The notes beneath the pieces are model-generated. The model was not told the origin of the DNA and did not search any database. It saw nothing but the letters and a program-made list of their open reading frames with translations. The position numbers were made by a program, and so were the translations under genes. 64,000 nucleotides of DNA from a virus (lineage: Duplodnaviria; Caudoviricetes). Shown here piece after piece: positions 6,301 through 38,543 of this stretch; the stretch's first letter is position 1; every line of letters starts with the position of its first letter. Location of the stretch: the IMG/VR virus record IMGVR_UViG_3300043821_000026, positions 64,001 through 128,000 of that record; one strand, written 5' to 3'.

Positions 6301-8289
6301 GAATTTGTTCGTGTATGGGCAGAAGAAAATGATGGAAATTTAGATATTGATATTTTTGTATCATATAGCGAAACACCATTAATTCCAATTACAGCTAAAC
6401 CTAGTACAACTTGGGATAAAGTATTTTATTCAACAGTATTTGCTGATTTAAAATTAAGTGATTTCTCAACTAATTCTGTAGATTATTCAGTTAATAATGA
6501 AGAAGTAGAATTTGACGAGCATAATTATCGTATGGCTTTAGATACAGACGTAAATTACAATGAAGCACAAGGTGTTGTTATATCATATGGTATAGATGGT
6601 ATGGGAGATATTAATTCTCATAAAACAGAAGATGAACGAAATATTGATGGCGTATTTACATATTCCGAATCACCAAAAGTTGATGATAATAATAACACAA
6701 TAAGTACATTAAATAGATATGAAATAGCAACATTTAATCCAACATCTGGTTCTATATTATCTACAATTATATCAGGCGATTTTAGTCCTAAATATTCAAA
6801 ATCTAGTACTTTATCAGGATATACCGATGGGATTAAAACATATAGTAAATCTTGGTTAAATTATTGTCCTCATTGTGGAAAATCTAATACTTTAGTTACC
6901 GAAGATGATAGCGACGGAACTAATCATATAAAATGTACCAATACTGCTTGTAATTATTCATATTGTGGTTTTTCAGGATACGCTTATGCTCCTACTGAAA
7001 CAACTGAAATACAGTTAATACCAAAAAACAGATATGCAACATATTATAACTCTAGTTATAGTGAATACAATCCTAGTACTATTATTATTGGTAAAGCCTT
7101 CCCATCAGGTATAGATATGACAAATTATAATAAATTAGTTTTAGATATCGTACCTCATTTAGAAACAACAGAAACTGATACTGCAAAAAGAACTAAAATA
7201 CCTAGTGGTGTCTTAGAAGTAGTAGTATCTTTAAATGTTAATGGTTCTATTGAAGATGAAAAATATGTCGAAGAGGTAGATGAAAATAATAACCCAACTG
7301 GTGTTGTTAAATTAGTTAAAACTTCAAATGTTACTTATGGAAAAGCTTATACTATTAACCAAGAACTTTTAACTGATGTTCACAATGAAGTTGTTATATC
7401 TAGTATAAGAGATGATGTTTATGCTTATGGTAATGTAAAAAGTATAGGTATTAGAGTTAAAGATGTTGATTCTGATAATACTTTAAGATGTATTGCAAAT
7501 GGAGATAATAATTATTGTGATTCTATTGGAGTTGCAAATATTAGATTAGAATCAGATAATATTTATAGTCTTATTCCTTCATTAAATAAAGAAAGACGTA
7601 AATGGGTTATTAATAAAGATTTCGATACTACTCAAGTGTCTTATCAACTTGCAGATAATACTGCTACTGATGAAGATTATTGGGGACTTATGGACTTTAA
7701 TATTATGGGAAATAACATTATAGGTGATATTGCAACATATACTAGAGATATTGATGTTAGTACAACTAATTGGTATTATATTAGTTTCTTCTGTAATAAA
7801 ACTTTTAATAAAGGTGAATTTATAATTAATCTTTATGGTGATACTGATGGTAATGACTTAATAGAAAGTTTTTATCTTCCTGCATGGGATTATACAACAT
7901 TATCCGACAATGCTTGGAAAATGTTGTGGGATATTGACAGAAGAGAACGTTTACCTACAGATAAAGATGTTGTAGACCCAACAAAAGAATCTACTACAGG
8001 AACTCCGGGTCATTCATTCTTTATGGGTGCATGGTTTAAACGTAGAAATTACGATAACTACAACATTAAAATGATAAAACTTATCAGACAAGATGTGGAT
8101 GATGATAAAAACACAAAAGAAGATGGTTTTGTAGGAAAAGAATTAATGATACAAACCATAAGAGGTTATAGAAGTAAAACTATCCCATCTTTTGGACCTA
8201 AATTAAAATTAAGAATGTATCCAAAAAGTATTGAAAATCTTAAAGCACCAACAATACGTAAGTTTGGTGTTGTATATACATTATCATAG
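3322..8289 (+). CDS. Large tail/receptor-binding protein (1655 aa) with three inserted Cys4+ zinc-ribbon modules
   Basis: Beta-rich structural composition; 'VSNNGG.TY' Asp-box-like motif; RanBP-like 'WKCSNCG...CQKCG' and two 'W.N.CP.CG...C...C...YCGFSGY' modules; GGTGAG RBS. Confidence 0.65.
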   Translation: MTGYYQKIDNDLKPGHIARSGDINLIQSSINNAISDLAVDIEGPAVIIGGDENSFKLTPSPEKYDQLNTTTDENNQWISFHEKYLRQKIRIEKSEINSITVSVQNNSTYPITIVGEIRDCETYNLLSEKNTKLTPKTSKEVTFNFDLQHIKIGDYYFIIRPISLSSIDVALNGDETAIIGTEEISDDSFQIKFDCNGTYTTSQKWTESGLKYSYNGNEYNSLYDTEISDIIYADLWFKEKFASTDNTYSIEPGTALISGQKVYLLDTHVNIDGPSQKGDRADLVALMSNGHVEVIKGHASKGILEVPVLNNALQLAYIITYEDSVDWKCSNCGNINAFTSETCQKCGKGKNKKLPAIIQDDTNGLTRKRDLREEVRRLKKYTEYNEDRNAPSRIHYNCVLDAIPEANPDELKNMVLGINDSGDISYIANDSTVEEFYWTIKDFKNNITDDLVIGNFSVKYSKGNTVDGYIAGVNSYHRCWTNKCPNCGTKGSLNIQTLGSDDNQIVCDKSLGGCGNTFCGFSGYQILPSEDTTKKLTADKEPDNPNASLVNFNEHSIGEAKSLSGVAGAMALVHTDGTLVSDDDLAKGKKAMEEPPEDAKSTSKKKPKTFSKEDNVFHGLLQIDSNSTDGIDIDTTRGTVSLKLNKYDDEIVKNEPLSNSLKISGESNKVAYTINNNPETYGQQLSEYPALNFALDKPMYVKTLTPYITEFQNMKNFSVLLFKDDAVFNPPTDKFVCYTKKFKDDSTFPNVFEGELIDIPSNSTRSGESQVLNSEHSFEINQELPAGKYTLLVYGTPMDNATSGTIYVNCYSTTSSLKFGNAMTCRGPSHPDVLYIEPTNVKDYTWDLVLEHKGAKYAETGTLYSQSIPTQLPIKAVSKSINYDAGSGCSVDIYVSNNGGRTYTQIENEPIKFNGTGKLFKWKIVLKGTGETTPVVKYSDDKGFGLLFNVGEAVSDVQSTDYKRRIETRIIDAGWINANLLGDSYTYKNFSEWEFVRVWAEENDGNLDIDIFVSYSETPLIPITAKPSTTWDKVFYSTVFADLKLSDFSTNSVDYSVNNEEVEFDEHNYRMALDTDVNYNEAQGVVISYGIDGMGDINSHKTEDERNIDGVFTYSESPKVDDNNNTISTLNRYEIATFNPTSGSILSTIISGDFSPKYSKSSTLSGYTDGIKTYSKSWLNYCPHCGKSNTLVTEDDSDGTNHIKCTNTACNYSYCGFSGYAYAPTETTEIQLIPKNRYATYYNSSYSEYNPSTIIIGKAFPSGIDMTNYNKLVLDIVPHLETTETDTAKRTKIPSGVLEVVVSLNVNGSIEDEKYVEEVDENNNPTGVVKLVKTSNVTYGKAYTINQELLTDVHNEVVISSIRDDVYAYGNVKSIGIRVKDVDSDNTLRCIANGDNNYCDSIGVANIRLESDNIYSLIPSLNKERRKWVINKDFDTTQVSYQLADNTATDEDYWGLMDFNIMGNNIIGDIATYTRDIDVSTTNWYYISFFCNKTFNKGEFIINLYGDTDGNDLIESFYLPAWDYTTLSDNAWKMLWDIDRRERLPTDKDVVDPTKESTTGTPGHSFFMGAWFKRRNYDNYNIKMIKLIRQDVDDDKNTKEDGFVGKELMIQTIRGYRSKTIPSFGPKLKLRMYPKSIENLKAPTIRKFGVVYTLS

Positions 8290-8658: not shown

Positions 8659-9375
8659 ATGGGGGATTTAGAGCAAGAAATAAAATTAATACATAATGAT
8701 ATTAAATCACTTAAAGATGAAACCAATAAGGGGCTAACAAACGGTGATAGGTATCAAATGATAAAATTAATTGAATCAGAAATTAATCCATTAGACGAAA
8801 AGATTCAATTATTAGAAACAGAAATTGTACGCCAAGAAGGAGTTGATAATAAGATTTATGAAAATTATCAATCAATGTTAAAAGCAATGACTGAATTACG
8901 TAATTTTAAAAGTGAATTACGAGAAAAAATAGATACTGAAAATGACCATAGTAGGCAATATACTAATGAACAATTAAAATCATTTATTAGTGAAACTTTT
9001 GAACCATTTAAAGGAGATGTTTCAAGTTTGGAAAGTAAAGTTGATGAATTATATAACGAAATAGCAAAAAATCATGATGAAATTGAAAAATTAGATAAAA
9101 AAATTGATAGACATGAAGCTCAACGCCAAATTGATGAAACGAATCGTACTAAAGTAATGGAACAAAACGAAGCTCGTAGGCAGATTTGTGAAAGTCAAAT
9201 CATGCAGAAAATTGATGAAAATGAGAATAATAGAAAAGTGGCAGAAGCAGAAAGGTTTAATAAAACTTGGAAAATTTTAATCGCTATATCTGGATTAATA
9301 TTAACACTTATTACATTAAACACTTATCTTGACCCACCAATTCATCATCTATTCCATATATTATTTGGAATTTAG
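8659..9375 (+). CDS. Coiled-coil protein with C-terminal transmembrane helix (possible lysis accessory)
   Basis: Long charged coiled coil followed by hydrophobic 'ILIAISGLILTLITL'; last gene of the + strand module. Confidence 0.5.
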   Translation: MGDLEQEIKLIHNDIKSLKDETNKGLTNGDRYQMIKLIESEINPLDEKIQLLETEIVRQEGVDNKIYENYQSMLKAMTELRNFKSELREKIDTENDHSRQYTNEQLKSFISETFEPFKGDVSSLESKVDELYNEIAKNHDEIEKLDKKIDRHEAQRQIDETNRTKVMEQNEARRQICESQIMQKIDENENNRKVAEAERFNKTWKILIAISGLILTLITLNTYLDPPIHHLFHILFGI

Positions 9376-10453: not shown

Positions 10454-11170
10454 CTATAACTTTGTATATTTTGTATTATTTTTTCTTAAAAAATGGTATA
10501 TAGATGATTTTGGTAAATTAAAATCTTTTTCTATACCAGATATAAAGTATCCATTATTCTTTAAATCAATCAATTTATTTATTCCACCAATATTTTCGAT
10601 ATATTCATTTGTAAATGTTATTTTTGGATGTTGATAGTAATTTGAGTAAAAAATAAAAGCTTCTTCTTCTGTGTCAAATCCTTTTACTATATCCATTTTT
10701 TTATATTGCTCTATTCTTACTTCATATTTACAATCTTCATTTAATATAATAGAGTCTTTAACATTATTAAATGTGTGTTTTTTTATATATATATTATCTG
10801 ATAAATAAACATTTTTTAATCTAAAATCTTTATAGTTATTATTTAAATAATGAACATATTTATCAGAACCATTTTTATATAATAAAGATAAATATGTTGG
10901 TTTACAATTAATATTAGTTATTAATCTTTTTCTATAAATATTCCATAAATTATTTTCAACAATATCTTTGACACCATTGCAATATTTGAATACAACATGA
11001 GCTTTATCTCGTGGTTTTGGTTTATCATAAGTATAAAACTTACATACATCACAATGTTTACATTCATTAAATTTATTAATATAATTATTATATTCCTTTA
11101 TAATATCTTTTGCATCTTTTCCATGATTAAATGTAACAAAATCTACAAAAGGTATCTTTGCATCTTCCAT
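10454..11170 (-). CDS. Hypothetical DNA-binding protein, possibly a degenerate HNH-AP2-type homing endonuclease
   Basis: AP2-like 'YEVRI......KGFDTEEEA' motif and C-terminal HTH-like segment; GAGGTG RBS. Confidence 0.35.
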   Translation of the reverse strand: MEDAKIPFVDFVTFNHGKDAKDIIKEYNNYINKFNECKHCDVCKFYTYDKPKPRDKAHVVFKYCNGVKDIVENNLWNIYRKRLITNINCKPTYLSLLYKNGSDKYVHYLNNNYKDFRLKNVYLSDNIYIKKHTFNNVKDSIILNEDCKYEVRIEQYKKMDIVKGFDTEEEAFIFYSNYYQHPKITFTNEYIENIGGINKLIDLKNNGYFISGIEKDFNLPKSSIYHFLRKNNTKYTKL

Positions 11171-11183
11171 TATAACACCTCTT

Positions 11184-11443
11184 AAAAAAAATAATCTAAG
11201 AGGTCGTTCCTCTTAGATTTAATTCAAATATGAACAATTGTCTAATCTATTTTGGATGAACACTATTTGAATTTAACAAGCAAGTATTAGGTTAATAACT
11301 CCTAATAATATATTCTAGAAATATATATACTTACAGGGAGCCTTTCGCTATCGATTTACATTGACTAGAAGACGATATTTAAACCTTTGTCTACACGGTA
11401 CTGACTCAATAGATTTTTATAGTGAAATCTGTCACTCGTCAAT
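11184..11443 (-). ncRNA. Candidate ~255-nt structured non-coding RNA or long leader, with its own promoter and terminator
   Basis: TATA box at 11461-11470; ATTGAC/GTCAAT closing stem (11360-11443); 10-bp stem 11221-11273; 11-bp terminal hairpin 11193-11219 followed by U8. Confidence 0.55.
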
Positions 11444-11479
11444 ATAATATTATACAACATAGTATATAAAATTTTCCAT

Positions 11480-11520
11480 AAAAAAAGACCCCAACTTGAA
11501 TACATGAAGAAGTTGGGGTA
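11480..11520 (-). terminator. Hairpin plus U-tract terminator of the tRNA operon
   Basis: ACCCCAACTT...AAGTTGGGGT stem followed by TTTTTTT on the - strand. Confidence 0.7.
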
Positions 11521-11548
11521 ATCGCACACAAATTTAAATCAATGAAAA

Positions 11549-11622
11549 TCCCCCCTGCCGGACTCGAACCAGCAACATTTCGGTCTACAGCCGAATGCTC
11601 TACCAAATTGAGCTAAGAAGGG
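11549..11622 (-). tRNA. trnY: tRNA-Tyr(GTA), archaeal type (C1-G72, short variable loop, CCA not encoded)
   Basis: Cloverleaf CCCTTCT-TA-GCTC...GAGC-A-TTCGG-CTGTAGA-CCGAA...GCTGG-TTCGAGT-CCGGC-AGGGGGG-A. Confidence 0.95.
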
Positions 11623-11625
11623 TTA

Positions 11626-11713
11626 CGCCAGTAACAGGATTTGAACCTGCGATATCGCAATGGATAACAAGATTTCAAGTCTTGCGTCTTTGGCCGAACT
11701 AGACTATACTGGC
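11626..11713 (-). tRNA. trnS: tRNA-Ser(TGA), long variable arm
   Basis: GCCAGTA/TACTGGC acceptor, G73, anticodon arm CAAGA-CTTGAAA-TCTTG, T loop TTCAAAT. Confidence 0.93.
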
Positions 11714-11740
11714 CTATATTTGTCAGTCTATAAATGACAA

Positions 11741-11824
11741 CGCTGATAGCAGGATTCGAACCTGCGAGGTTCTATTGAACCATCAGGGTAGCAACCTGAC
11801 GCCTTACCGCTAGACTATACCAGC
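11741..11824 (-). tRNA. trnS: tRNA-Ser(GCT), long variable arm
   Basis: GCTGGTA/TATCAGC acceptor, G73, anticodon arm TCAGG-TTGCTAC-CCTGA, T loop TTCGAAT. Confidence 0.93.
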
Positions 11825-11827
11825 AAA

Positions 11828-11899
11828 TAGCTCCATCAGGAGTCGAACCTGAATCTACAGGGCCAAAGCCTATAATGATTGCCATTACACCATAGAGCT
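11828..11899 (-). tRNA. trnQ: tRNA-Gln(TTG), archaeal type (A1-U72)
   Basis: AGCTCTA/TGGAGCT acceptor, anticodon arm ATAGG-CTTTGGC-CCTGT, T loop TTCGACT. Confidence 0.93.
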
Positions 11900-11918
11900 A
11901 TAATTAAGGGTTTTTAAT

Positions 11919-12091
11919 AGGTGGACCCTCATAACCACCTTCTCTTTTAGGTGTGAATTTTTACGAACACCATCAAGATTTTACTCTTGAAATATGCAGA
12001 TTTATCATTGACCACTAGTAAGTCTAAAATCTGTGGGGTATTCTCACCAGCTTAAACTATCTTTCAATTGGATTTGAACCAATATCTCCCC
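11919..12091 (-). ncRNA. Structured RNA inside the tRNA operon: circularly permuted tRNA-like elbow (12035-12091) followed by four hairpins
   Basis: GGGG-AGAT-[ATTGG TTCAAAT CCAAT]-TGAAAGA-TA-[GTTT AAGCTGGTGA GAAT]-A-CCCC; hairpins at 11997-12033, 11973-11990, 11950-11971 and 11919-11940. Confidence 0.6.
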
Positions 12092-12094
12092 TAA

Positions 12095-12168
12095 AGGCAT
12101 TAGAGGGAATTGAACCCCCAACCTTAGCTTTACAGGAGCCACGCTCTGCCTAGTTGAGCTATAATGCC
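12095..12168 (-). tRNA. trnT: tRNA-Thr(TGT), atypical (C33, G2-C71)
   Basis: GGCATTA/TAATGCC acceptor, U73, anticodon arm TGGCT-CCTGTAA-AGCTA, T arm GGGGG-TTCAATT-CCCTC. Confidence 0.8.
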
Positions 12169-12254
12169 ATCAGGATATATTAAATATCCTGACTCATATT
12201 AAAATTGTAGTCACCCCTATCATGAGGAGGTGTATATTTTATTATAATTTATGT

Positions 12255-12272
12255 AGTATATAAACTTTTCGG
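12255..12272 (-). promoter_or_regulatory. Archaeal BRE-TATA promoter of the tRNA operon (CCGAAAAGTTTATATACT)
   Basis: The same TTTATATACT core recurs at 11461, 15309, 26551 and 38384 (- strand) and 26584 (+ strand), always in intergenic gaps upstream of genes. Confidence 0.75.
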
Positions 12273-12273
12273 T

Positions 12274-15213
12274 TTAATCATTATGATTGACTCTATCTTT
12301 AAGCTCTTGTTTTTTACCTGCATTCCATTTTTGTGTTACAGTAAAATATCCTGTAATTCTACTCATACTATAAACATTTTCAGAGCCACAATAAATACAA
12401 GAGTCATTATCACCATTTGCTTGTTTACCACATTCTTTGCATACTGTGAAAGCAGAAGTATATGCCCAAAATTGTATATTTTGTTTTTTAATTTTCTTAG
12501 TTAAACTCATAAGAGATTGTGGGTCCATATAAGCCTCACCTAAGAAACAATTAAGGATACAACCTGCTGGTTCATATTTATGATAAGTATTAGCGTTTTT
12601 AATATGTTCAATAATACTTCCTTGAGAATCTACAGGTAAGTGATTACTATTTGTATAATAATATCCACCTTCAACTCCTTTACATAATATATCAGGATAT
12701 ATTTTTTTATCAATTTCTGCAAAACGATGAGAACATGATTCAGCAGGAGAACCTAAACAAGCAAATCTTAATCCATATTTAGCTTTTTGTTTTTTAGAAT
12801 ATTCATTCATAAATTCTAAAATTTCTTCTCCATATTTATTACCTTCAGGAGTATCTAAATCATATCCTGTAAGCATTTTAACAGCTTCATATAATCCACA
12901 AGTACCAAATGTAAATGAAAAGTTACTAATATCATATAATGGTTTACCAGTATATTTATCTTCTTGTAATAAAAACCCTAAATATCCTTCTGTATTAGCT
13001 CTATCTTCAAAGTTTTGTTTTCTATCCAACATAGACATTGTCCCAATATTCATAAAATGTTCAAGATATTGTTTAAATTCATCCATATTATTACTGATAT
13101 AAGCCATTCTTGGAAGATTAAAAGTTATGTAAGCAAAGTTTCCTACATTAAGAGTATCTATTTCCCAATTACCAGTCCAATTAGTTCCGTTAGCAGTTCT
13201 ACAATTTTCACTATGTATACCACCTAATCCACAAACATAATTATGATTATTTTCTATTGTTAAATCATATACATTATCATCATTATTTACAACTTCAATA
13301 TCTTTAATAATAGTATTATTTTTTGGAGAATAATTAATACCGAATGTAACTCTATAATTTGGTTTCCAATTATTTGTTTTACCTTTTCTATTATCAATAT
13401 AAAGAGTGTTTTGTCTTCCTATATATGATAAAGCATATAATACATCGGTTACTAAATTTTTATCAGAACAAGACCAAACATAGTTATTAGATTGTTTATG
13501 AGCATCTAACATTAAACCTTTAATAATATTAGCTATTTTATTTTTATCAGACCAACATTGAGGAAATGTTTTCTCCCCGTTTTTAGTATATAGTTGTACT
13601 AATTTATCTCTTATATTTAATTCTCTAATATTAATAGAGTAAGTACCATTATTTTGTTTAGTAATATCATATTTATAACCTAATTTATCGCATAAATTAG
13701 TAATATATTCTTTTTTCCAATTTAATTTTATATGAAATTCTATAGCATTACTATTTCGCAAAGCTCGTTCATTACTTCGTATATAACCATCAGCTAAAAA
13801 AGCACCTATAAATTCATATTCTAAATCATCAACTGGGATAAATGGTTCGTCAATATAGTTATATAATTCCATACCTACTTTTAAATTTTCAGATTTAATA
13901 ATACCATCTTTAGTTGGTAATTTATGATTATCGGTTACTTTAAAAATATATCCATTATTACAAGTAATCTTAAATACCTTTTCAGAAACTGGTTTTTTAA
14001 TAATATTAATAACTTTATTCCATTCCTTTGTACCATCTTTATTATATGTCATTACATTATCATTTAATTGTAACTCTTGAGGATATTTAAAACCTTTATC
14101 TGTCATAACAGGGGTATCAGAAGTTAATGCCCCCATTACAGTTGTTGCTGTACCGTTTTGAGGAAGGTCTTGATTTATAAAATATGGAGTAGGGAATTTA
14201 GCTATTAATTCATGAATATTTAATAATAATTCATCATATTCTTCACCCATAAATTCATCACGAAGATTAAATAAAGTATTTGGGAAAATATGACATTTAC
14301 CCTTAGCGTCACCTTCATATAAGACTTCTATAAAAGCGTCTATAATCATACGAGCTTCTTTTTTATAGTCATTATATACACCAACTTCACGACCACCGGG
14401 ACCATATGCTGTTAAATCTCGCATAAATGGTGGAACATCTAATTCTAACCCAACAGATGAAAATACTACTTGACCTTTTGATATTAAAGACATATTACAA
14501 TTAAAAATAAAATTTTGAATACATTGTTTTACTTCTTCATATGTTAATCCTTCTGCAAATGGCGCTAAGAATATATTAAAGTATGGATACCCTTGACCTC
14601 CACTAAGAACCGTAGAGCCAGCCATAAAAGCTTGTAAGAGATGATTGAGAAGTACATTTAAGCTTTTAGCTGGTGAAGCACAAGAACAGTTTATACCTTG
14701 ACCATCAATTTTTAAACCATTTTTAATGAAAAATCTGATATCATAGCTAATACAGTTTGCAGGACGAATATTATATGCTTCCATATCATGTATATGAATA
14801 TATCCATCTGTATATGCTTTGCTACATTCTTCGGGCATAGTTAATAGTGCATATTCTTTTAATACAGCATCTGATGCGTATTTAACCACTTGTTCAGGAC
14901 CAAAATTAATATTAGCATTATCTTTATTACCACTATCGATTAAATTTTCTAAAGCAGATACGGATAATCCCAATTTTCTACTTTGTTTTTCTGTATCAAA
15001 TAACCCATCTTTAGTTAAATGATAATTAATCATATCTCTTATTTGTGCTGTGGAGATTTGATTAATTCCATCAATATTATTAACTTTTCTAGCTATTCTA
15101 TTCTTAATATTTTCTGCTTTTTCTTCATCTAAATCAGTTTCATATAATATATGTTCTTTTATTATTTTTGGTTGAAATTTAGATATATCACCTGTACTAT
15201 TTACGACATCCAT
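12274..15213 (-). CDS. nrdD: Anaerobic (class III) ribonucleoside-triphosphate reductase with N-terminal ATP cone and an intein
   Basis: 'GYIHIHD', 'SGGQG', 'MG|CRT' thiyl-radical site, 'PAES', 'YYTNS', C-terminal CxxC...CxxC and glycyl-radical 'SRITGY'. Likely start is MDVVNS at 15213. Confidence 0.95.
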   Translation of the reverse strand: MDVVNSTGDISKFQPKIIKEHILYETDLDEEKAENIKNRIARKVNNIDGINQISTAQIRDMINYHLTKDGLFDTEKQSRKLGLSVSALENLIDSGNKDNANINFGPEQVVKYASDAVLKEYALLTMPEECSKAYTDGYIHIHDMEAYNIRPANCISYDIRFFIKNGLKIDGQGINCSCASPAKSLNVLLNHLLQAFMAGSTVLSGGQGYPYFNIFLAPFAEGLTYEEVKQCIQNFIFNCNMSLISKGQVVFSSVGLELDVPPFMRDLTAYGPGGREVGVYNDYKKEARMIIDAFIEVLYEGDAKGKCHIFPNTLFNLRDEFMGEEYDELLLNIHELIAKFPTPYFINQDLPQNGTATTVMGALTSDTPVMTDKGFKYPQELQLNDNVMTYNKDGTKEWNKVINIIKKPVSEKVFKITCNNGYIFKVTDNHKLPTKDGIIKSENLKVGMELYNYIDEPFIPVDDLEYEFIGAFLADGYIRSNERALRNSNAIEFHIKLNWKKEYITNLCDKLGYKYDITKQNNGTYSINIRELNIRDKLVQLYTKNGEKTFPQCWSDKNKIANIIKGLMLDAHKQSNNYVWSCSDKNLVTDVLYALSYIGRQNTLYIDNRKGKTNNWKPNYRVTFGINYSPKNNTIIKDIEVVNNDDNVYDLTIENNHNYVCGLGGIHSENCRTANGTNWTGNWEIDTLNVGNFAYITFNLPRMAYISNNMDEFKQYLEHFMNIGTMSMLDRKQNFEDRANTEGYLGFLLQEDKYTGKPLYDISNFSFTFGTCGLYEAVKMLTGYDLDTPEGNKYGEEILEFMNEYSKKQKAKYGLRFACLGSPAESCSHRFAEIDKKIYPDILCKGVEGGYYYTNSNHLPVDSQGSIIEHIKNANTYHKYEPAGCILNCFLGEAYMDPQSLMSLTKKIKKQNIQFWAYTSAFTVCKECGKQANGDNDSCIYCGSENVYSMSRITGYFTVTQKWNAGKKQELKDRVNHND
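13204..14130 (-). mobile_element. Intein (309 aa) in NrdD with LAGLIDADG-like endonuclease; Ala1 start, Glu-Asn end, Cys+1
   Basis: Block A 'ALTSDTPV', block B 'VTDNHKL', 'FIGAFLADG', block F 'VYDLTIENNHNY', end 'HSEN|C'; removal restores MGCRT. Confidence 0.9.
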
Positions 15214-15590
15214 ATAATCATCTCTTAATTTGTTTAATTTTAAAAAAAATTTTAATAAAATAAGTTTAATTTTATATTTTATTTTCAATTATAATGTATA
15301 TTTTTTAAAGTATATAAAGATTTTTATTTTTTTCTTTGTTTTTGCAAATCTTTATCAACTTGACTTGCAGTTCTCTTTCTGCAACTATCAAAGTATCTAC
15401 AATCCCAGTCACACTTCATTAATGAAATATCTTTATCTCTTTTTTTACAATAACATTTATTCTTTATTAGCTTCTTGATTGTTGTCTTTTTCATCTTGCT
15501 CTTTCTCCAATTCACAATCTTCCATATTAATAATTTTTCTTAATTTATTACAGTAAACTTTTCCTTGTTTCGCTAACTCTATTAAATCCA

Positions 15591-16217
15591 TTATATAGCC
15601 TCATTTAATCTTATTTTTATAAGATAATTATTAATATCTTCATAATAATTATCAGATATATTGTTAACTTTATCATTTGATAATTGAAATTTTATATCAA
15701 GCAACTTTTTATTTAAAGCAAAATATTCATCTATCGAATTTACACTTTTTGGTTTAAATTCTTTATCATATAAAAAACAATAATCTTCCATTATTTTATT
15801 ATATTCATCTATATCGTAATTTTTAGAATCAATGATAGAATCAATTCTATTAATTAATTCATCATTAAAATAAAACATTGGTACTGTATCATTTAAAATA
15901 GAAAGAATATCTAATCGTTTTTGATTATATTTTGTTTTAACATCTGTATCATGTGATAGTAGTTTGTAAAATGATATATCTCCTTTATTATATATATTTC
16001 TTAATACAATGCCTATTTCAAAAAAATTAAATATAACATTACTATTTATTTGACTATTTAAAGTAGGTGATGGTTCATGTGTAACATCTAAAAAATTTTT
16101 TGTATTATCTATATATACACCAGTAATATAATCATCAATCTGATAAATATTAAAAAAATAACGTTTCTGTTCAGAAAAATGATTAACAATAGAATCTAAA
16201 ATAGCAGGAGAAATCAT
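15591..16217 (-). CDS. Hypothetical protein, possibly a degenerate nucleotidyltransferase-fold protein
   Basis: Weak resemblance ('GVYI', 'FFEIG..L....KGD'); no intact GS/DxD motif. Confidence 0.25.
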   Translation of the reverse strand: MISPAILDSIVNHFSEQKRYFFNIYQIDDYITGVYIDNTKNFLDVTHEPSPTLNSQINSNVIFNFFEIGIVLRNIYNKGDISFYKLLSHDTDVKTKYNQKRLDILSILNDTVPMFYFNDELINRIDSIIDSKNYDIDEYNKIMEDYCFLYDKEFKPKSVNSIDEYFALNKKLLDIKFQLSNDKVNNISDNYYEDINNYLIKIRLNEAI

Positions 16218-16711
16218 TAAATCTCTCCTTTATGTTTATCATCTTGATAATCACCATCATATTTTATATCACAATTATTTAAATCAAAGCTCATCATTTG
16301 AGCAAATCTTTCATTCATTTCGATACAAAAATTATTTTGACTATGATTTATCATCATAAAAGTTAATGTACCATTGTATCCAGCATCACCAACGCAAGTA
16401 CGAACATCTACCCCACATCTTAATAATGTACTACGAGGGAAATATAATTGTACTTGGTCTTTTGGAATATTCATTGGTTCTGATACTTCTGCAATATATA
16501 CTATGTCAGGATATAAAGTATATATTCCATTTTTAGTATTAACGGGTTTATATATTGGTAAGTTTTTATGTCCATTATAAATACCTGTAGGACATCCATC
16601 ATTATCTTCAATAATATATAATTGTCCTAATCTTAAATCTACACCATTTGGTTGTAAAGTTTCACTATCTGTTTCGTAATTATCTTTTAAATATAAATTT
16701 CCATTAATCAT
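16217..16711 (-). CDS. Trimeric dUTPase / dCTP deaminase family protein (archaeal type)
   Basis: 'QPNGVDLRL', 'PRSTLLR.G', 'DAGY.G', 'ERFAQM', 'Y.G.YQ' motifs. Confidence 0.88.
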   Translation of the reverse strand: MINGNLYLKDNYETDSETLQPNGVDLRLGQLYIIEDNDGCPTGIYNGHKNLPIYKPVNTKNGIYTLYPDIVYIAEVSEPMNIPKDQVQLYFPRSTLLRCGVDVRTCVGDAGYNGTLTFMMINHSQNNFCIEMNERFAQMMSFDLNNCDIKYDGDYQDDKHKGEI

Positions 16712-17378
16712 ATTGTTCACCATTTTCTATTTTATAAAATTCTGTATATAAAAATCTTGCAAATTTAACTGCTATCTTTCTTTGTGTCATATATTTAATA
16801 TGTTTCATTGTATAATTCGAATGTTTAAATAAATATTTATCAAAATATTCGTTATACATTTGTTTATATTCAGGGTTGTATTTAATTAACTTTTTAACAA
16901 CTTTTAATATAACTTTATTTAATCTATCATTATATTGAATTTTTGAAGTATCCTGTTTAGGATTACCAATTATTTCACCATATTGTTTATTTTTTTTAGT
17001 AATTTTTTGATATGAATTTCCCATTTTATTGACTGGAGATAATCCACAATAATATATGAATGAATTTTTATTCTTAAATCTATTAATATCTTTAATTAAA
17101 ACAATTAACTCACCTGCATCATAAATAGATATTCCGTCTATATGTTCTAAGCAATCATAGTATTCTGGAATAAATGATATTGTTTGTTTAATTTTTTTAT
17201 ATAATAAATCTAATGGAGCGTCTAACGAATTAATACTAATATTAATTAAAGAATTTCTTGCATCATTTGTTAAACCTATAAAATTATTAATTCTAGATTT
17301 ATTTGATTTTTTAGCTTCAAATAATGTTTTATTAGTATTGATTAAGATATTTAATACTTGTAATTGTGCATCATCCAT
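16704..17378 (-). CDS. IS110-transposase C-terminal/Nop-like RNA-binding protein lacking the RuvC domain (TasA-like)
   Basis: Coiled coil, then 'IDGIS...AGELI..I.DINRF......YCGLSP', 'YN..L' and 'RKIAV...'; no DEDD domain; 'MG' where IS110 has the catalytic 'SG'. Confidence 0.7.
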   Translation of the reverse strand: MDDAQLQVLNILINTNKTLFEAKKSNKSRINNFIGLTNDARNSLINISINSLDAPLDLLYKKIKQTISFIPEYYDCLEHIDGISIYDAGELIVLIKDINRFKNKNSFIYYCGLSPVNKMGNSYQKITKKNKQYGEIIGNPKQDTSKIQYNDRLNKVILKVVKKLIKYNPEYKQMYNEYFDKYLFKHSNYTMKHIKYMTQRKIAVKFARFLYTEFYKIENGEQYD

Positions 17379-18019
17379 TATCTCACCTTATTAATTCCAT
17401 TAACAGTTTTTTGTCCTATACCTTTTATATTAAGTAGTTCTTCATCTGTTGCTTGTAATACACCTAATGGTGTTTTAAATTCTTTTAGTAATAATTTAGC
17501 TGTTTTTTTACCAACATAATCAATACCTAAAAGAACTTGAATTTTCGAACTAGCGTCTTTCTTTTGAACAATAGGAGGTTCAATTGGTTCAGTATTTTTA
17601 TTAACAGTATTAATTATACTTTCAATTAACAATGGCATTGATTTTTTTGTTTCACATTGTAATACTGGAACTTTATATCTAACAGATAAAGAAGCTATAT
17701 TACTATAGTATTGTTTTCTAGTAAAATTTTGATATTTATAATTAATATCGTCTAATTTGCCATAAATAATAATATAACAAAAATCATATTTTTCTTTCAT
17801 CCTTAATGCTTGGTCTTGAATGTGTCTACTATTAAAGCTAGACACGAAATCACTTACACTTTTAAGTTCAATCATAATATTAGATAAATCTTGTCTTTTA
17901 ATTAAAACATCACCATCTTCATTATGAGATACGGAGCAAATGCCTGAAAAGTATTCATCAATTATTTTTATTGTACTTGAATCTTCTCTATCATCTATTA
18001 AAATTTTTAAATCATTCAT
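17378..18019 (-). CDS. XPF/Mus81/Hef-family (ERCC4 + HhH2) structure-specific nuclease
   Basis: 'IDDRE', 'GD', 'IELKS..DF..S', 'QA.RM' and two C-terminal 'I.GIG.KT' HhH motifs. Confidence 0.88.
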   Translation of the reverse strand: MNDLKILIDDREDSSTIKIIDEYFSGICSVSHNEDGDVLIKRQDLSNIMIELKSVSDFVSSFNSRHIQDQALRMKEKYDFCYIIIYGKLDDINYKYQNFTRKQYYSNIASLSVRYKVPVLQCETKKSMPLLIESIINTVNKNTEPIEPPIVQKKDASSKIQVLLGIDYVGKKTAKLLLKEFKTPLGVLQATDEELLNIKGIGQKTVNGINKVR

Positions 18020-18618
18020 TTATAATCATCTTCCGTTATACGATACCAATCATACTTATCATTAACGTATAAGGAATGATAAGCTGTGGCTTCTATAGCT
18101 TTTTTTATTCTATTACTTGGTTTATTTCTTTTAGTAGAATATAATGAACCAAGAGCTAATTCTTTACCGACTCCTATAGCTACATAATCTCCATCAGGTT
18201 CAAATAAACCAAGATTATCTTCAATCTCAAATATATCACCATTATATACTATTAAAAAATTACTATTAGTTTTAATTTGAGTACCATTCATATCTACTAG
18301 TCCTGATAGTTCTAATTCAGTTTTTAAACAATATAGGAAAGAATTAATTAAATATGTTCTAAAATCTGTTCCTTGTATATAATCAGGAGCTTTATAAGAA
18401 TATCTAATAAAATTGAAAATTGAAAATATACCTGAAAAACCGATAATTAAATGTCTTGTATCAATCTTATTTCCATTTTCATCTACCATATTAAATGGTT
18501 TAGAACAAATTTTAGGATTTTTTGATATTTCTATATTATTTCCTGAACTGATTGCACTATCACTACCAATATATACATCACCTGTTTTTTTATATTTAAT
18601 TGCTACAATTACTGTCAT
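18016..18618 (-). CDS. HslV/proteasome-beta-like Ntn peptidase
   Basis: N-terminal nucleophile Thr (M-T-V-I-V), 'GSDS', 'PKI', 'GFSG', 'AIGVG..LALG'. Confidence 0.75.
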   Translation of the reverse strand: MTVIVAIKYKKTGDVYIGSDSAISSGNNIEISKNPKICSKPFNMVDENGNKIDTRHLIIGFSGIFSIFNFIRYSYKAPDYIQGTDFRTYLINSFLYCLKTELELSGLVDMNGTQIKTNSNFLIVYNGDIFEIEDNLGLFEPDGDYVAIGVGKELALGSLYSTKRNKPSNRIKKAIEATAYHSLYVNDKYDWYRITEDDYK

Positions 18619-18626
18619 ATTTTACC

Positions 18627-19568
18627 TCATATATATAAATAATTTCCATTACAACTTTCATCACATAATCCTTCTAATTTTAATCTTGCACAACTTGGGA
18701 ATAAAACATCAGTTCTATCATATAAATATTCTATTTGATGTTCTGAATTAACACAATGATTAAATTTATTTTCACTAAGAAATCCTTTCATGATATTATG
18801 AATATCTTCTATTGAGTATCCCATATCCCTCAAGTATGTTATTATATAACCTCTTTCTTGATAGCCAAGATTAGGTTCTAACATCATTTTTGATACACAA
18901 GGTATATAAGCATTACTAAATATGATTTTATTATTTTTATTGATAGGTTGATGTATATTATCAGCTTCAGTATCATATTTTTGTAAATCAAGTTTGTTTA
19001 AATATAATGTAGGGTGAATATTTCGAGGACTTGTTGCTAAACTTTTAATTTCCTGCAAGGTAAGTTTGATTATTTCATCACTAAATAATGGTATACAATA
19101 CCTTCCTGTTTTTAAATTAATTGTATTAGGACAACGACGCACTCTCATTAAGTCACCAATTACAGAATTATCACTTAAAGTATTTGTTTTATGATGAAGT
19201 TCTGTTACGAAGTTTTTAATAGCTTTTTTAGGATTTTTCAATGAAACAGATGTATCAACATCTATTAATATATGAAATCCTCTACCTGAATATAATACAT
19301 TATGTGCTATATTATTATCTCTTAAATATTTAACAACAATTTGGCAATTATTATATGCCACTATATCATCATTATTTATTGGGTCAAAATCTAAAAATAC
19401 ATATTTTACAATTGCATTATACGCTTTTGGGTCTTCGTTAAAATTATAAACTGAAATATATAAATCTTTCCAACCATTATTGTTGTTAATTATAGTATCC
19501 CATTTTGTGTCATCAATTGGTAATGTAATTCTAACGTTTGGTTTTAGAAATATCTGACCAACTATCAC
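18627..19568 (-). CDS. priS: Archaeo-eukaryotic primase: PriS catalytic domain fused to a PriL-like Fe-S C-terminal domain
   Basis: 'FLDFD', 'SGRGFH', 'D..RV.R.PNT.N'; C-terminal 'PC', 'PSC..L...GLC...C'. Confidence 0.85.
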   Translation of the reverse strand: MIVGQIFLKPNVRITLPIDDTKWDTIINNNNGWKDLYISVYNFNEDPKAYNAIVKYVFLDFDPINNDDIVAYNNCQIVVKYLRDNNIAHNVLYSGRGFHILIDVDTSVSLKNPKKAIKNFVTELHHKTNTLSDNSVIGDLMRVRRCPNTINLKTGRYCIPLFSDEIIKLTLQEIKSLATSPRNIHPTLYLNKLDLQKYDTEADNIHQPINKNNKIIFSNAYIPCVSKMMLEPNLGYQERGYIITYLRDMGYSIEDIHNIMKGFLSENKFNHCVNSEHQIEYLYDRTDVLFPSCARLKLEGLCDESCNGNYLYI

Positions 19569-19986
19569 TTACATCACCGACATATAGTTCTAATCTTCTA
19601 TCTAAAACTTCATATATTAATCGTCTAATATAATCACATTCTGGTGATAGATATATTCCTCTACCATTCATAATATCAATATATGGCCAATCACGACATT
19701 CTCGCCATCTATCTTTCCATATATCACATACATATAATTTATAATTATCTTCATCATGTTGTAAATGTTCACATTCCATACTTGAACAGCAATTACCACA
19801 TCTAATACAGTAATCTTTTGATTGTATATAATCATAGGTAAATTCAATCGGTGTAGTAACTATAGCTTCTTCAATTATATCTGCTAAAATATCAGTATCT
19901 AAATCTGGAAATTTATTATGATAATAGTCTAATAATTCTTTTAATAATTTAAGATAGTTAGCAAATTTAGAAATTTTTTCTTCCAT
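19531..19986 (-). CDS. YkgJ-like Cys-cluster (Zn/Fe-S) protein
   Basis: 'CIRCGNCC...C..L......C.I...R...CR.WP'. Confidence 0.7.
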   Translation of the reverse strand: MEEKISKFANYLKLLKELLDYYHNKFPDLDTDILADIIEEAIVTTPIEFTYDYIQSKDYCIRCGNCCSSMECEHLQHDEDNYKLYVCDIWKDRWRECRDWPYIDIMNGRGIYLSPECDYIRRLIYEVLDRRLELYVGDVSDSWSDISKTKR

Positions 19987-26485: not shown

Positions 26486-26626
26486 CTCGATTTTTATACA
26501 TGAAAAAATTTATATTAGAAATTTCTTCACATAATTAATATCTATCTGTTAGTATATAAAGGTATCGATTAAAATATTTTTTCTTTATATACTACATAAA
26601 ATAACTATAGTTAATGGGGTGTTAAT

Positions 26627-27427: not shown

Positions 27428-27739
27428 TCTTTAATACTTGATTAACTGTCTTAATTTTTTTTACCCAAAATTGAAAATCAGTATATATTTTTTTTCTTTT
27501 AACAATAAAATGAGTATCCATATCTGTTATTAAATAACAAATATAGTCATCGTAAAAATAGATAATTTCTTTACTTTTTTTTAAATCAGATTCATTAATT
27601 TTTCTATTATAAATAATCATAACAACACCTTTTTTATATATGTAATTTACCTCGACTTTCCCCAATTATAATGAAGCCACGAGCTTTCTTTTATATTGCA
27701 AATACAATAGCGAGGTGTATTATCGTGGTTTCAATTGAA

Positions 27740-28060
27740 TTACATTGAATTTATTTGTTCTGCTTTTTCTAATAATATTTTATTTAATGTTGTCTGAAAA
27801 TTATAATAATCAGATACAATTTTACTATCAAAATTTAAGAAAAATTGATTATCTGATATTTTTATTAAAATATCAAAATCTGTTAAAATTTCAGGCATAA
27901 CAGTATAAAAATCTAAATCATTTTTATATAAATCTGAAATTTCTTTTCGAGATAATACATCATAACGATTATGATATTCACTATCAAGAAGAGTTAAAAT
28001 ATCCTCTGGGTAGAGGGTATTTTTTTCTCTTGATTTTTTTAAAAAGGAAAATATAAAAAT
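27740..28060 (-). CDS. Hypothetical protein (~106 aa) with non-canonical ATT/ATA start, not in ORF track
   Basis: Stop-free frame fills the gap downstream of an AAGGAG RBS. Confidence 0.5.
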   Translation of the reverse strand: MFIFSFLKKSREKNTLYPEDILTLLDSEYHNRYDVLSRKEISDLYKNDLDFYTVMPEILTDFDILIKISDNQFFLNFDSKIVSDYYNFQTTLNKILLEKAEQINSM

Positions 28061-38423: not shown

Positions 38424-38455
38424 GAAAAAAAAGCCGTACCTATCGGCACGACTTA
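38424..38455 (-). terminator. GU-rich hairpin plus U8 terminator
   Basis: AAGTCGTGCC-GATA-GGTACGGCTT-TTTTTT on the - strand; pairs fully only as the - strand RNA. Confidence 0.7.
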
Positions 38456-38543
38456 AAGGTAGCGATTGAATGGTTAATGAGGTATAACCCTCTAATAACC
38501 TCATGTTTTCATATATATTTTGAAGTATAAAAGAATGTATTTT

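Follow-up and report, generated by a model that had tools for sequence, protein, structure and literature searches.

Why would a virus keep a guide-binding protein when it carries no recognisable array of guides? The question is raised by a minus-strand gene in a 64-kb window of viral DNA, which comprises bases 64001-128000 of one 138,502-bp viral contig (G000) with 27% G+C. The gene encodes a protein related to the Tas proteins of TIGR-Tas systems, which were described in 2025 (PMC12045711). Arrays have been detected for only about one in three known tas loci, and the role of the arrayless Tas branches has been stated as an open question (bioRxiv 10.64898/2026.09.09.750476). Nuclease-less Tas proteins of the TasA type are RNA-guided repressors or DNA binders, as shown for MbTasA and BlTasA. 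The Tas-like protein described here is either a guide-binding protein that has been reused for replication or one that receives its guide from elsewhere.

An intact gene between XPF and dCTP deaminase

The initial annotation of this DNA had described a 224-aa reading frame translationally coupled to an XPF gene upstream and a dUTPase gene downstream. The frame is present as described (Table 1), with gene overlaps on both sides: the start of tas and the stop of XPF share base 17378 in a one-base ATGA overlap, and the 3′ end of tas runs 20 nt into the start of the downstream gene. Pairwise dN/dS of tas is 0.09-0.2, similar to that of the neighbouring polymerase-module and core genes. These values, together with the presence of homologues, rule out a chance reading frame. 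Mosaicism is strong among near-identical strains, with a dS of 0.89 for tas against 0.13 for XPF and a tRNA block that is 99.8% identical.

The product of the upstream gene matches Pfam ERCC4 (2.7e-13) and HHH_2 (5.4e-9) and the NCBIfam Hef nuclease model (7.4e-24). Its residues D9, R11, E12, G36, D37, E51, K53 and D57 are invariant among seven orthologues, and the Arg of 'ERK' in the GDxnERKx3D motif is replaced by L, V or T in all seven. The wider minus-strand block also encodes a split DnaE, a Cas4-like PD-(D/E)XK nuclease, an AEP primase, an HslV-like protein and an anaerobic ribonucleotide reductase.

Table 1. Features of the tas locus, in window coordinates.
Feature	Position	Strand	Evidence
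tas-like gene, 224 aa (nuclease-less Tas-family, TasA-like)	16704..17378	-	ORF, Pfam, NF052498, fold, dN/dS
Coiled-coil hairpin of the Tas-like protein, aa 3-67 (antiparallel helices 3-32 and 38-67)	17178..17372	-	AF2 secondary structure
Nop / Transposase_20 C-terminal domain of the Tas-like protein (helical), aa 71-219	16722..17168	-	Pfam, AF2, alignments
Short XPF/Hef-type nuclease gene (ERCC4 + HhH2), 213 aa, directly upstream of tas	17378..18019	-	Pfam, NCBIfam
dCTP deaminase/dUTPase-like gene, 168 aa	16217..16723	-	Pfam DCD 6.9e-22, dUTPase 3.2e-8
Likely archaeal-type promoter (CGATACCTTTATATA) that opens the minus-strand replication block with tas	26540..26575	-	Consensus reading only

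The protein has the architecture of TasA

In Pfam, residues 75-128 match Transposase_20 (PF02371, E 9.4e-9), and no DEDD/RuvC or other nuclease domain is matched in the 224-aa protein. The top NCBIfam model is NF052498 (TIGR_Tas_endo), with an E-value of 2.6e-13 and 50.5 bits, below its curated cut-off of 100; the match spans residues 61-212 and model positions 58-212 of 215. The IS110 model NF033542 reaches E 5.4e-6 and 25.8 bits, below its cut-off of 140. An exhaustive search of 1.84 billion representatives detected only 42 relatives, mostly of 180-260 aa. NF052498 is matched by all 25 relatives that were aligned (best E 1.4e-51), and a profile of the family alignment matches TaTasR (PDB 9MTY) over the coiled coil and the Nop domain with E 1.1e-38 and 136.6 bits, TasH with E 2e-16 and IS621 with E 2.4e-4.

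The AF2 model (pLDDT 88.8, pTM 0.82) consists of the coiled-coil hairpin and the helical Nop domain, in which an insertion at aa ~117-148 is floppy and of low confidence. Aligned with VIA-align, the model is closest to TasR (9mty; Z 20.2, rmsd 2.5 Å, 194 residues, 20% identity), where it covers TasR residues 108-302, that is, the part after RuvC. TasH follows at Z 16.2-17.7, then IS621 (15.6; 15.5-15.7 with ISCro4), Nop5 (1nt2; 8.3) and Prp31 (~7.4). Foldseek (E 3.9e-6, TMq 0.72) returned the same ranking. Taken together, the sequence and structure rankings therefore identify a Tas-family protein with TasA architecture, in which a coiled-coil hairpin is joined to a Nop domain and no nuclease is present; it can be classed neither with the IS110 enzymes nor with Nop5. 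Pfam and the AF2 model agree with the original reading of a coiled coil and a Transposase_20/Nop-like region only, without DEDD, and the likeness to nuclease-less TasA that was noted at that stage is borne out by both rankings.

Within the Nop domain, the conserved motifs are DI.RF, Y.G, YN, Y..Y and H......RK...KF. The parts that vary most between strains are the coiled-coil tip and second helix (aa ~34-83), with a block at aa 34-46 in alignments, and a strain contig from sequencing run X6 diverges beyond 85% identity across 17129-17266.

These comparisons also address the origin of the gene. A recently truncated, decaying IS110-family transposase would account for the Pfam Transposase_20 match and for the label 'transposase' that a 69%-identical relative carries at NCBI, but we find this origin hardly credible. 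A DEDD domain occurs in no relative of any length (42 of 42 are without RuvC), and dN/dS lies at 0.09-0.2; the recent truncation with relaxed dN/dS by which the initial annotation would have been refuted is not seen. In addition, genes overlap tas on both sides with no inverted ends, synteny is fixed in viral contigs (eight counted), and sequence and fold are both nearer to Tas than to IS110. The replacement of the catalytic SG by MG, also proposed at the outset, is consistent with the alignments: NKMGNS follows YYCGLSPV, with no conserved Ser at that place in seven orthologues, and the NKMGNS stretch is deleted in a subfamily of ~190 aa.

A deep clade fixed in a replication module

In a tree of 101 Tas proteins, 23 rows split from 78 array-type Tas rows with an SH-aLRT of 98; the tree is a quick maximum-likelihood one, midpoint-rooted, the careful search being unfinished. 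By this sequence comparison, the Tas-like proteins form a deep, arrayless clade that is distinct from array-type Tas. Gene contexts were readable for relatives with contigs in IMG/VR or GTDB. The nine of the 23 clade rows with such a context form one group on the tree, and all of them lie in a DnaE-primase-XPF-Tas-Dcd-NrdD module carried by viruses of 120-150 kb.

Viral relatives with tas in the matching position include two close ones (86% and 69% identity) and four distant ones (36-44%). Synteny across related viruses, which had been suggested as a check on the first reading, is conserved: the order (Cas4-like)-x-primase-(HslV-like)-XPF-Tas-Dcd-x-NrdD is found in L001, L002, L005, L006, L007 and L008, so that XPF-Tas-Dcd-x-NrdD is kept in six loci down to 36% identity. 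The one-base junction of XPF and tas recurs in five of six related viral loci, again down to 36% identity, and the sixth, L006, has a 2-nt gap. Dcd lies 3′ of tas in all related loci and mostly adjoins it directly; a small membrane ORF intervenes in L007 and three extra ORFs in L008. In L105, a 121-kb viral contig that represents the ~190-aa subfamily, the order is PHP-DnaE-x-XPF-2 small genes-Tas-Dcd-NrdD-NrdG. Based on this order, the link with the replication module is general, and only in the nearer clade does XPF abut tas directly. The Tas-like gene is thus a fixed part of a replication and nucleotide-metabolism module of 120-150-kb tailed viruses. A further relative with 40% identity lies on a 146.8-kb contig from deer caecum that was binned as a Clostridia MAG, its flanking genes falling outside the comparison.

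The host of these viruses is probably a methanogenic archaeon. This assignment is suggested by DnaE, whose best GenBank phage match is Methanobacterium virus PhiF1 (E 4e-119, 89% coverage), with bacterial phages well behind, and by repeated CGATACCTTTATATA words before gene blocks, which resemble archaeal BRE/TATA promoters. Such BRE/TATA-like words also stand before the homologous gene in L002 and before three tandem cassettes past the window end. The Pacebacteria and Clostridia MAG labels on relatives are most simply taken as binning errors. Several studies of bioreactor sludge and wastewater have yielded metagenomes that contain DNA of the virus. An archaeal host would own box C/D RNPs. A tblastn search of 50,697 GenBank phage records, PhiF1 included, detected no Tas-like protein, and P0029 as the sole query gave 0 matches in IMG/VR.

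No array of the known kinds accompanies the gene

We re-implemented the published TIGRFinder logic, in which a dual-repeat array is a run of box C(3)-N9-box D(2) intervals spaced 4 nt apart, and in which a stem-loop unit is a pair of box C-N9-box D intervals that lie within 15 nt of each other inside a stem of 5 bp or more. As a positive control, array chains of 5-31 units were detected adjoining tas in 46 of 80 canonical Tas viral loci; these arrays are mostly CCA-N9-TG/AG, and a five-unit stem-loop array was also found in L095. Because arrays are detected in the control, a negative outcome is meaningful for known array kinds, while a single or very divergent guide could escape.

The lack of a ~36-nt periodic TIGR array in the 64-kb window, reported in the initial annotation, is confirmed and now extends further: arrays of the known kinds are absent from the whole 138.5-kb genome G000 and from a 139-kb relative, G001 (96% complete by CheckV), for which the scan result was like that of G000. 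Over all 1,024 box pairs, the longest box C-N9-box D chain in G000 has four members and consists of AT-rich words only, and no chain of three or more with a C...G box pair occurs in the whole genome. With the published motifs, one stem-loop unit is found in G000 versus 0-4 in shuffles; with a widened motif set, nine are found versus 0-8. None of eight related loci has an array beside tas, and the intergenic space around tas is almost nil in any relative. A relaxed scan for any symmetric box pair (spacers 8-12, loops 3-25, stems of at least 6 bp) returned 606 matches, which are unclustered, against 470-503 in shuffles (about 485).

We considered whether the protein could nevertheless function under RNA guidance as TasA proteins do, as a repressor or DNA binder, with a guide that sits in one or a few non-array units elsewhere in the virus or is supplied by the host. 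This is a possible reading, which we hold tentatively. Its appeal is that the fold and the Nop motifs are kept, that TasA proteins are RNA-guided repressors whose arrays can be remote or intragenic, and that stem-loop tigRNAs vary widely and may be encoded within genes or at a distance from tas (Xu et al. 2026; bioRxiv 10.64898/2026.09.09.750476). It is also possible that box C/D-type small RNAs of an archaeal host would serve as a source of guides. Against this stand the scans, in which dual-spacer units are at chance level in two near-complete genomes, and the position of the gene, which is that of a replication gene and not of an early regulatory or defence gene.

Candidate guide loci in the viral genome

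The guide loci named at the outset found no support on closer inspection. Two of them, examined as 11171-11438 and 11900-12095, show no more stable folding than shuffled sequence (z about -1.2) and lack box C-N9-box D geometry. They sit in the tRNA block, which is 99.8% identical in L001 and is missing at the matching position of L002, a 28.6-kb partial contig in which tas is kept. The third, 38424-38505, consists of two hairpins, the second of which is terminator-like. Rfam returned five tRNAs only at gathering score and no match within 11100-12300 at a relaxed E-value. A C/D snoRNA match (snoR120, 27697-27769) was dismissed as being at chance level, with 22.9 bits versus 55 and an E-value of 0.26, and the gaps 3′ of tas in L007 and L008 were dismissed as RNA loci since they are occupied by a small membrane-protein ORF.

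One element that would speak for a guided TasA is a single CCA-N9-TG-TTAAA-CCA-N9-TA unit, which lies behind a strong promoter just past the window end. However, its second box D is imperfect (TA), and spacer B is sequestered in a hairpin that involves the following promoter. The unit is one of five chance-level half-patterns in the genome, where it has no adjacent two-strand paired target, and we rejected it as a guide.

Two structured elements are described here in their own right. One is a structured, non-coding block of 768 nt just past the window end that contains six copies of the CTCTTAAAG repeat; taken as a TIGR array, this repeat block was rejected, as it is absent from G001 and its repeat and spacer sizes misfit TIGR units. 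At ~27636-27740 of the window (minus strand), a pseudoknot-type RNA leader stands upstream of a small gene; it is conserved in five of these viruses, with covariation in all three stems, and the small protein of the leader gene had 0 matches in IMG/VR. The best match of the relaxed scan, at 27682-27723, is an arm set of this conserved leader with a layout unlike that of a tigRNA, and was set aside.

Among the sequencing runs that hold DNA of the virus, none is on record as RNA. Two metagenome runs labelled 'RNA-Seq' contain short identical contigs, one of them in tas (16933-17107); both were flagged as probably DNA and are not taken as evidence of expression.

Residues for guide handling are partly missing

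The conserved Nop core can be read against experimental work on SpTasH, and we mapped residues through a HMMER alignment to SpTasH, using the mutational data of PMC13421893. In dual-repeat Tas proteins, pre-tigRNA is cut by a dyad in the C-terminal loop, Y289/H296 in SpTasH (PMC13421893). The Tas-like protein ends at about TasH residue 287, and the dyad is therefore absent, along with E292, K293 and R305. The loop between its last two helices has five residues, and this short C-terminal loop resembles that of the stem-loop class of Tas proteins.

In TasH, R278 and R286 hold the guide ends, W203 stacks on the heteroduplex and K211 acts as a DNA wedge (PMC13421893). The aligned residues are Tyr215 for R278, Tyr223 for R286 and Leu158 for W203; K211 aligns to Lys166, a lysine that is not conserved within the clade. 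That several guide-end residues of TasH have no counterpart here is a further point against a working guided TasA. The features common to TasR and TasH are N150 of 'YN', Y171 and the helix H193...R200-K201...K205-F206, with His193 being Arg in three of seven orthologues. This virus retains most of the core Nop motifs found in TasR and TasH, and its Tas-like protein may therefore still bind RNA. From the alignment, we regard RNA binding by the Tas-like protein as plausible but not assured.

Proposed role in viral DNA replication

We propose, with a probability of roughly 55%, that the gene encodes an array-free TasA-like protein that was exapted for replication or recombination of viral DNA, where it would probably work with XPF. 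The coiled coil is expected to form a dimer, as it does in all solved Tas proteins, and nucleic acid would be held on the Nop domains and the coiled coil of this dimer. Lacking its own programmable array of guides, the dimer would have been recruited for replication or recombination of DNA, and it would probably act with XPF on branched or RNA-DNA hybrid intermediates. Any RNA that it binds would be a fixed non-array RNA or one derived from replication. The partnership with XPF is a probable one, conserved gene order being the one observation that points to it, and the proposed function as a whole is likewise read from the neighbouring genes. A complex prediction for a TasA dimer with XPF scored 0.00, but it was run without controls and carries no weight either way.

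It is also conceivable that XPF and the TasA-like dimer together constitute a split RNA-guided nuclease, in which a fixed or host-derived small RNA would position XPF as TasR and TasH do with their RuvC or HNH domains. We consider this arrangement unlikely. Were it true, it would imply a site-specific step in replication or recombination, a third and trans-acting nuclease partner for Tas, and a natural hard-wired guide.

A further proposal places the target in the host: as a decoy, a guide-less protein could soak up host guide RNAs or form mixed dimers with host Nop5 or Tas. A dimerisation coiled coil and an RNA-binding domain without an effector would suit such a role, as would the coiled-coil tip and second helix being the fastest-changing parts among strains and a probable archaeal host, to which the link with PhiF1 points and which would have box C/D RNPs. 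Nevertheless, we judge a decoy to be very unlikely. The similarity to Nop5 is weak (Z 8.3 versus 20.2 for TasR), the fibrillarin-binding N-terminal domain is missing, and a position that stays within the replication genes over the range of 30-100% identity speaks more for a core function. The reading that we prefer remains exaptation for viral DNA replication or recombination.

Importantly, this clade offers a clean case: a TasA-type protein that is intact and under selection is encoded by near-complete viral genomes without recognisable arrays. Its gene is locked into a replication block beside a structure-specific nuclease, and related box C/D machinery is owned by the probable archaeal hosts of these viruses. 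Should the protein turn out to be guide-free, a scaffold for guide RNA has been put to use in DNA metabolism; should its RNA be fixed or host-derived, it would represent a new way of guide supply.

Comparison with known systems

TIGR-Tas systems, TasA repressors and arrayless branches have already been published (PMC12045711; bioRxiv 10.64898/2026.09.09.750476), and the locus is not a new kind of system. An arrayless TasA-like variant that has a coiled coil and lies beside XPF is so far undescribed in the literature. The closest relatives in architecture are the TasA proteins of stem-loop TIGR-Tas (PlTasA, BlTasA, MbTasA), which likewise combine a coiled coil with a Nop domain, are nuclease-less and occur in a viral setting (PMC12045711; bioRxiv 10.64898/2026.09.09.750476). 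The protein shares with them a short C-terminal region without the Y/H guide-processing loop, and NF052498 is its best sequence match. Unlike stem-loop TasA, it has neither a stem-loop nor a dual-repeat array, belongs to a separate deep clade and does not conserve several guide-end contacts, and its gene is fixed in a replication and nucleotide-metabolism block next to XPF instead of beside an array.

TaTasR of dual-repeat TIGR-TasR (9MTY) is the best structural match, over the coiled coil and the whole Nop domain, whereas its N-terminal RuvC (residues 1-~107) and its 36-nt tigRNA array are both absent here. With the arrayless compact viral TasR branch, the source of whose guides was left open, the locus shares a viral setting so gene-dense that an array would not fit (Xu et al. 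2026). That branch is described as having RuvC and no coiled coil, whereas the present protein has a coiled coil and no RuvC.

The IS110 bridge-RNA recombinases (IS621, 8WT6; ISCro4, 9T56) have in common with it a coiled coil and Transposase_20, but the DEDD RuvC, the catalytic Ser and the non-coding end that bears the bridge RNA are lacking here, and the gene is not mobile. Archaeal Nop5, eukaryotic Nop56/58 and Prp31 share the basic Nop fold with a coiled coil (Z 7.4-8.3); compared with Nop5 and Nop56/58, the match is much weaker, there is no fibrillarin-binding N-terminal domain, and there is no sign of dependence on L7Ae or a K-turn. Guide-free or guided, the way in which this protein works bears on how Tas, IS110 and Nop5 are related.

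A covarying RNA leader and other non-coding elements

A conserved RNA leader, with counterparts in related viruses (see table), is located about 1.1 kb before the probable archaeal-type promoter that heads the minus-strand block containing the TasA-like gene tas. Its three stems occur in the interleaved order A5'-B5'-C hairpin-A3'-B3', which implies a pseudoknot or alternative folds. The sequence of stem A differs from virus to virus, yet complementarity of 9-11 bp is kept in all five; covariation is also seen in stems B and C, and the loop word TTTTATGGGGAAAG is conserved. Comparison of the leader with Rfam gave no match. Its stem layout is unsuited to a tigRNA, the guide RNA of TIGR-Tas arrays.

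Features and their positions; genome coordinates refer to the whole contig
Feature	Sequence	Position	Strand	Remarks
RNA leader	window	27636-27740	-	~90 nt; conserved; 5' of small gene (MIIYNRKINESD...)
Leader counterparts	L019; L022; L023; L024	8396-8505; ~6440-6530; 7702-7780; ~1615-1705
Possible non-coding RNA gene	window	11171-11438	-	after tRNA cluster
Anaerobic ribonucleotide reductase	window	12274-15288	-
Promoter cassettes, BRE/TATA-like	genome	128455-128735	-	three in tandem; 455-735 bases past window end
Non-coding block	genome	128806-129573		768 nt; 806-1573 bases past window end
Two-helix membrane protein gene	L007; L008	6720-6925; 6982-7188

A possible non-coding RNA gene follows the tRNA cluster, in which a promoter-like TGTATAAT word leads into about 250 ORF-free nt, followed by a strong terminator hairpin that has a T-run. 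The identical sequence is found in the related locus L001 and is absent from the corresponding position in L002; no match to it was found in Rfam. In the 139-kb relative G001 (L019 ~8690-8860, minus strand), one gene of the tRNA cluster appears to be interrupted within its anticodon region by roughly 100 inserted nt, possibly an intron.

Past the window end, a short hairpin comes after each of the three promoter cassettes. The middle cassette includes one CCA-N9-TG-TTAAA-CCA-N9-TA unit, which occurs at chance frequency and for which the genome contains no paired target. The structured non-coding block (MFE z about -8) contains six plus-strand copies of CTCTTAAAG spaced 26-65 nt apart, with one copy in the rest of the genome; it also includes terminator-like hairpins and about ten words resembling TATAGAGA. 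This block, which is not present in G001, may act as an origin, as a protein-binding array or as a regulatory region.

Variation around tas and its neighbors

Comparison of window positions 11000-19600 with L001 revealed gene-sized mosaicism between the two strains, whose tRNA blocks show 2 differences in ~1,140 bases. For XPF dS is 0.13 and for the dCTP-deaminase-like gene 0.28. In contrast, dS is 0.89 for tas, and protein identity for the 208-aa gene (15591-16217) is only 50%. In a further strain (sequencing run X6), segments are replaced at 15591-15990 and, within tas, at 17129-17266.

In two distant relatives, tas and the dCTP-deaminase-like gene are separated by a small inserted gene whose product is a two-helix membrane protein (GIWFGIVTAT...GLDWWIV). 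Separately, a zinc-ribbon-like Cys-x2-Cys ... Cys-x-Cys insertion is seen in rows P0014, P0017, P0026, P0032 and P0038 of the relatives' alignment A3, where it occupies the position of the floppy insertion of the tas protein; these rows form a sister subgroup within the arrayless clade, the separate Tas-family branch containing tas.

The anaerobic ribonucleotide reductase has 1,004 aa in the window and L001 versus 660-670 aa in L002, L005, L006 and L105, and the additional middle part of the longer form resembles an intein that carries a homing-endonuclease-like insert. None of the seven viral XPF orthologues, among them the one encoded upstream of tas (window 17378-18019, minus strand), keeps Arg in the ERCC4 'ERK' motif, where Leu, Val or Thr stands instead; the ERCC4 acidic residues and Lys are invariant across all seven.
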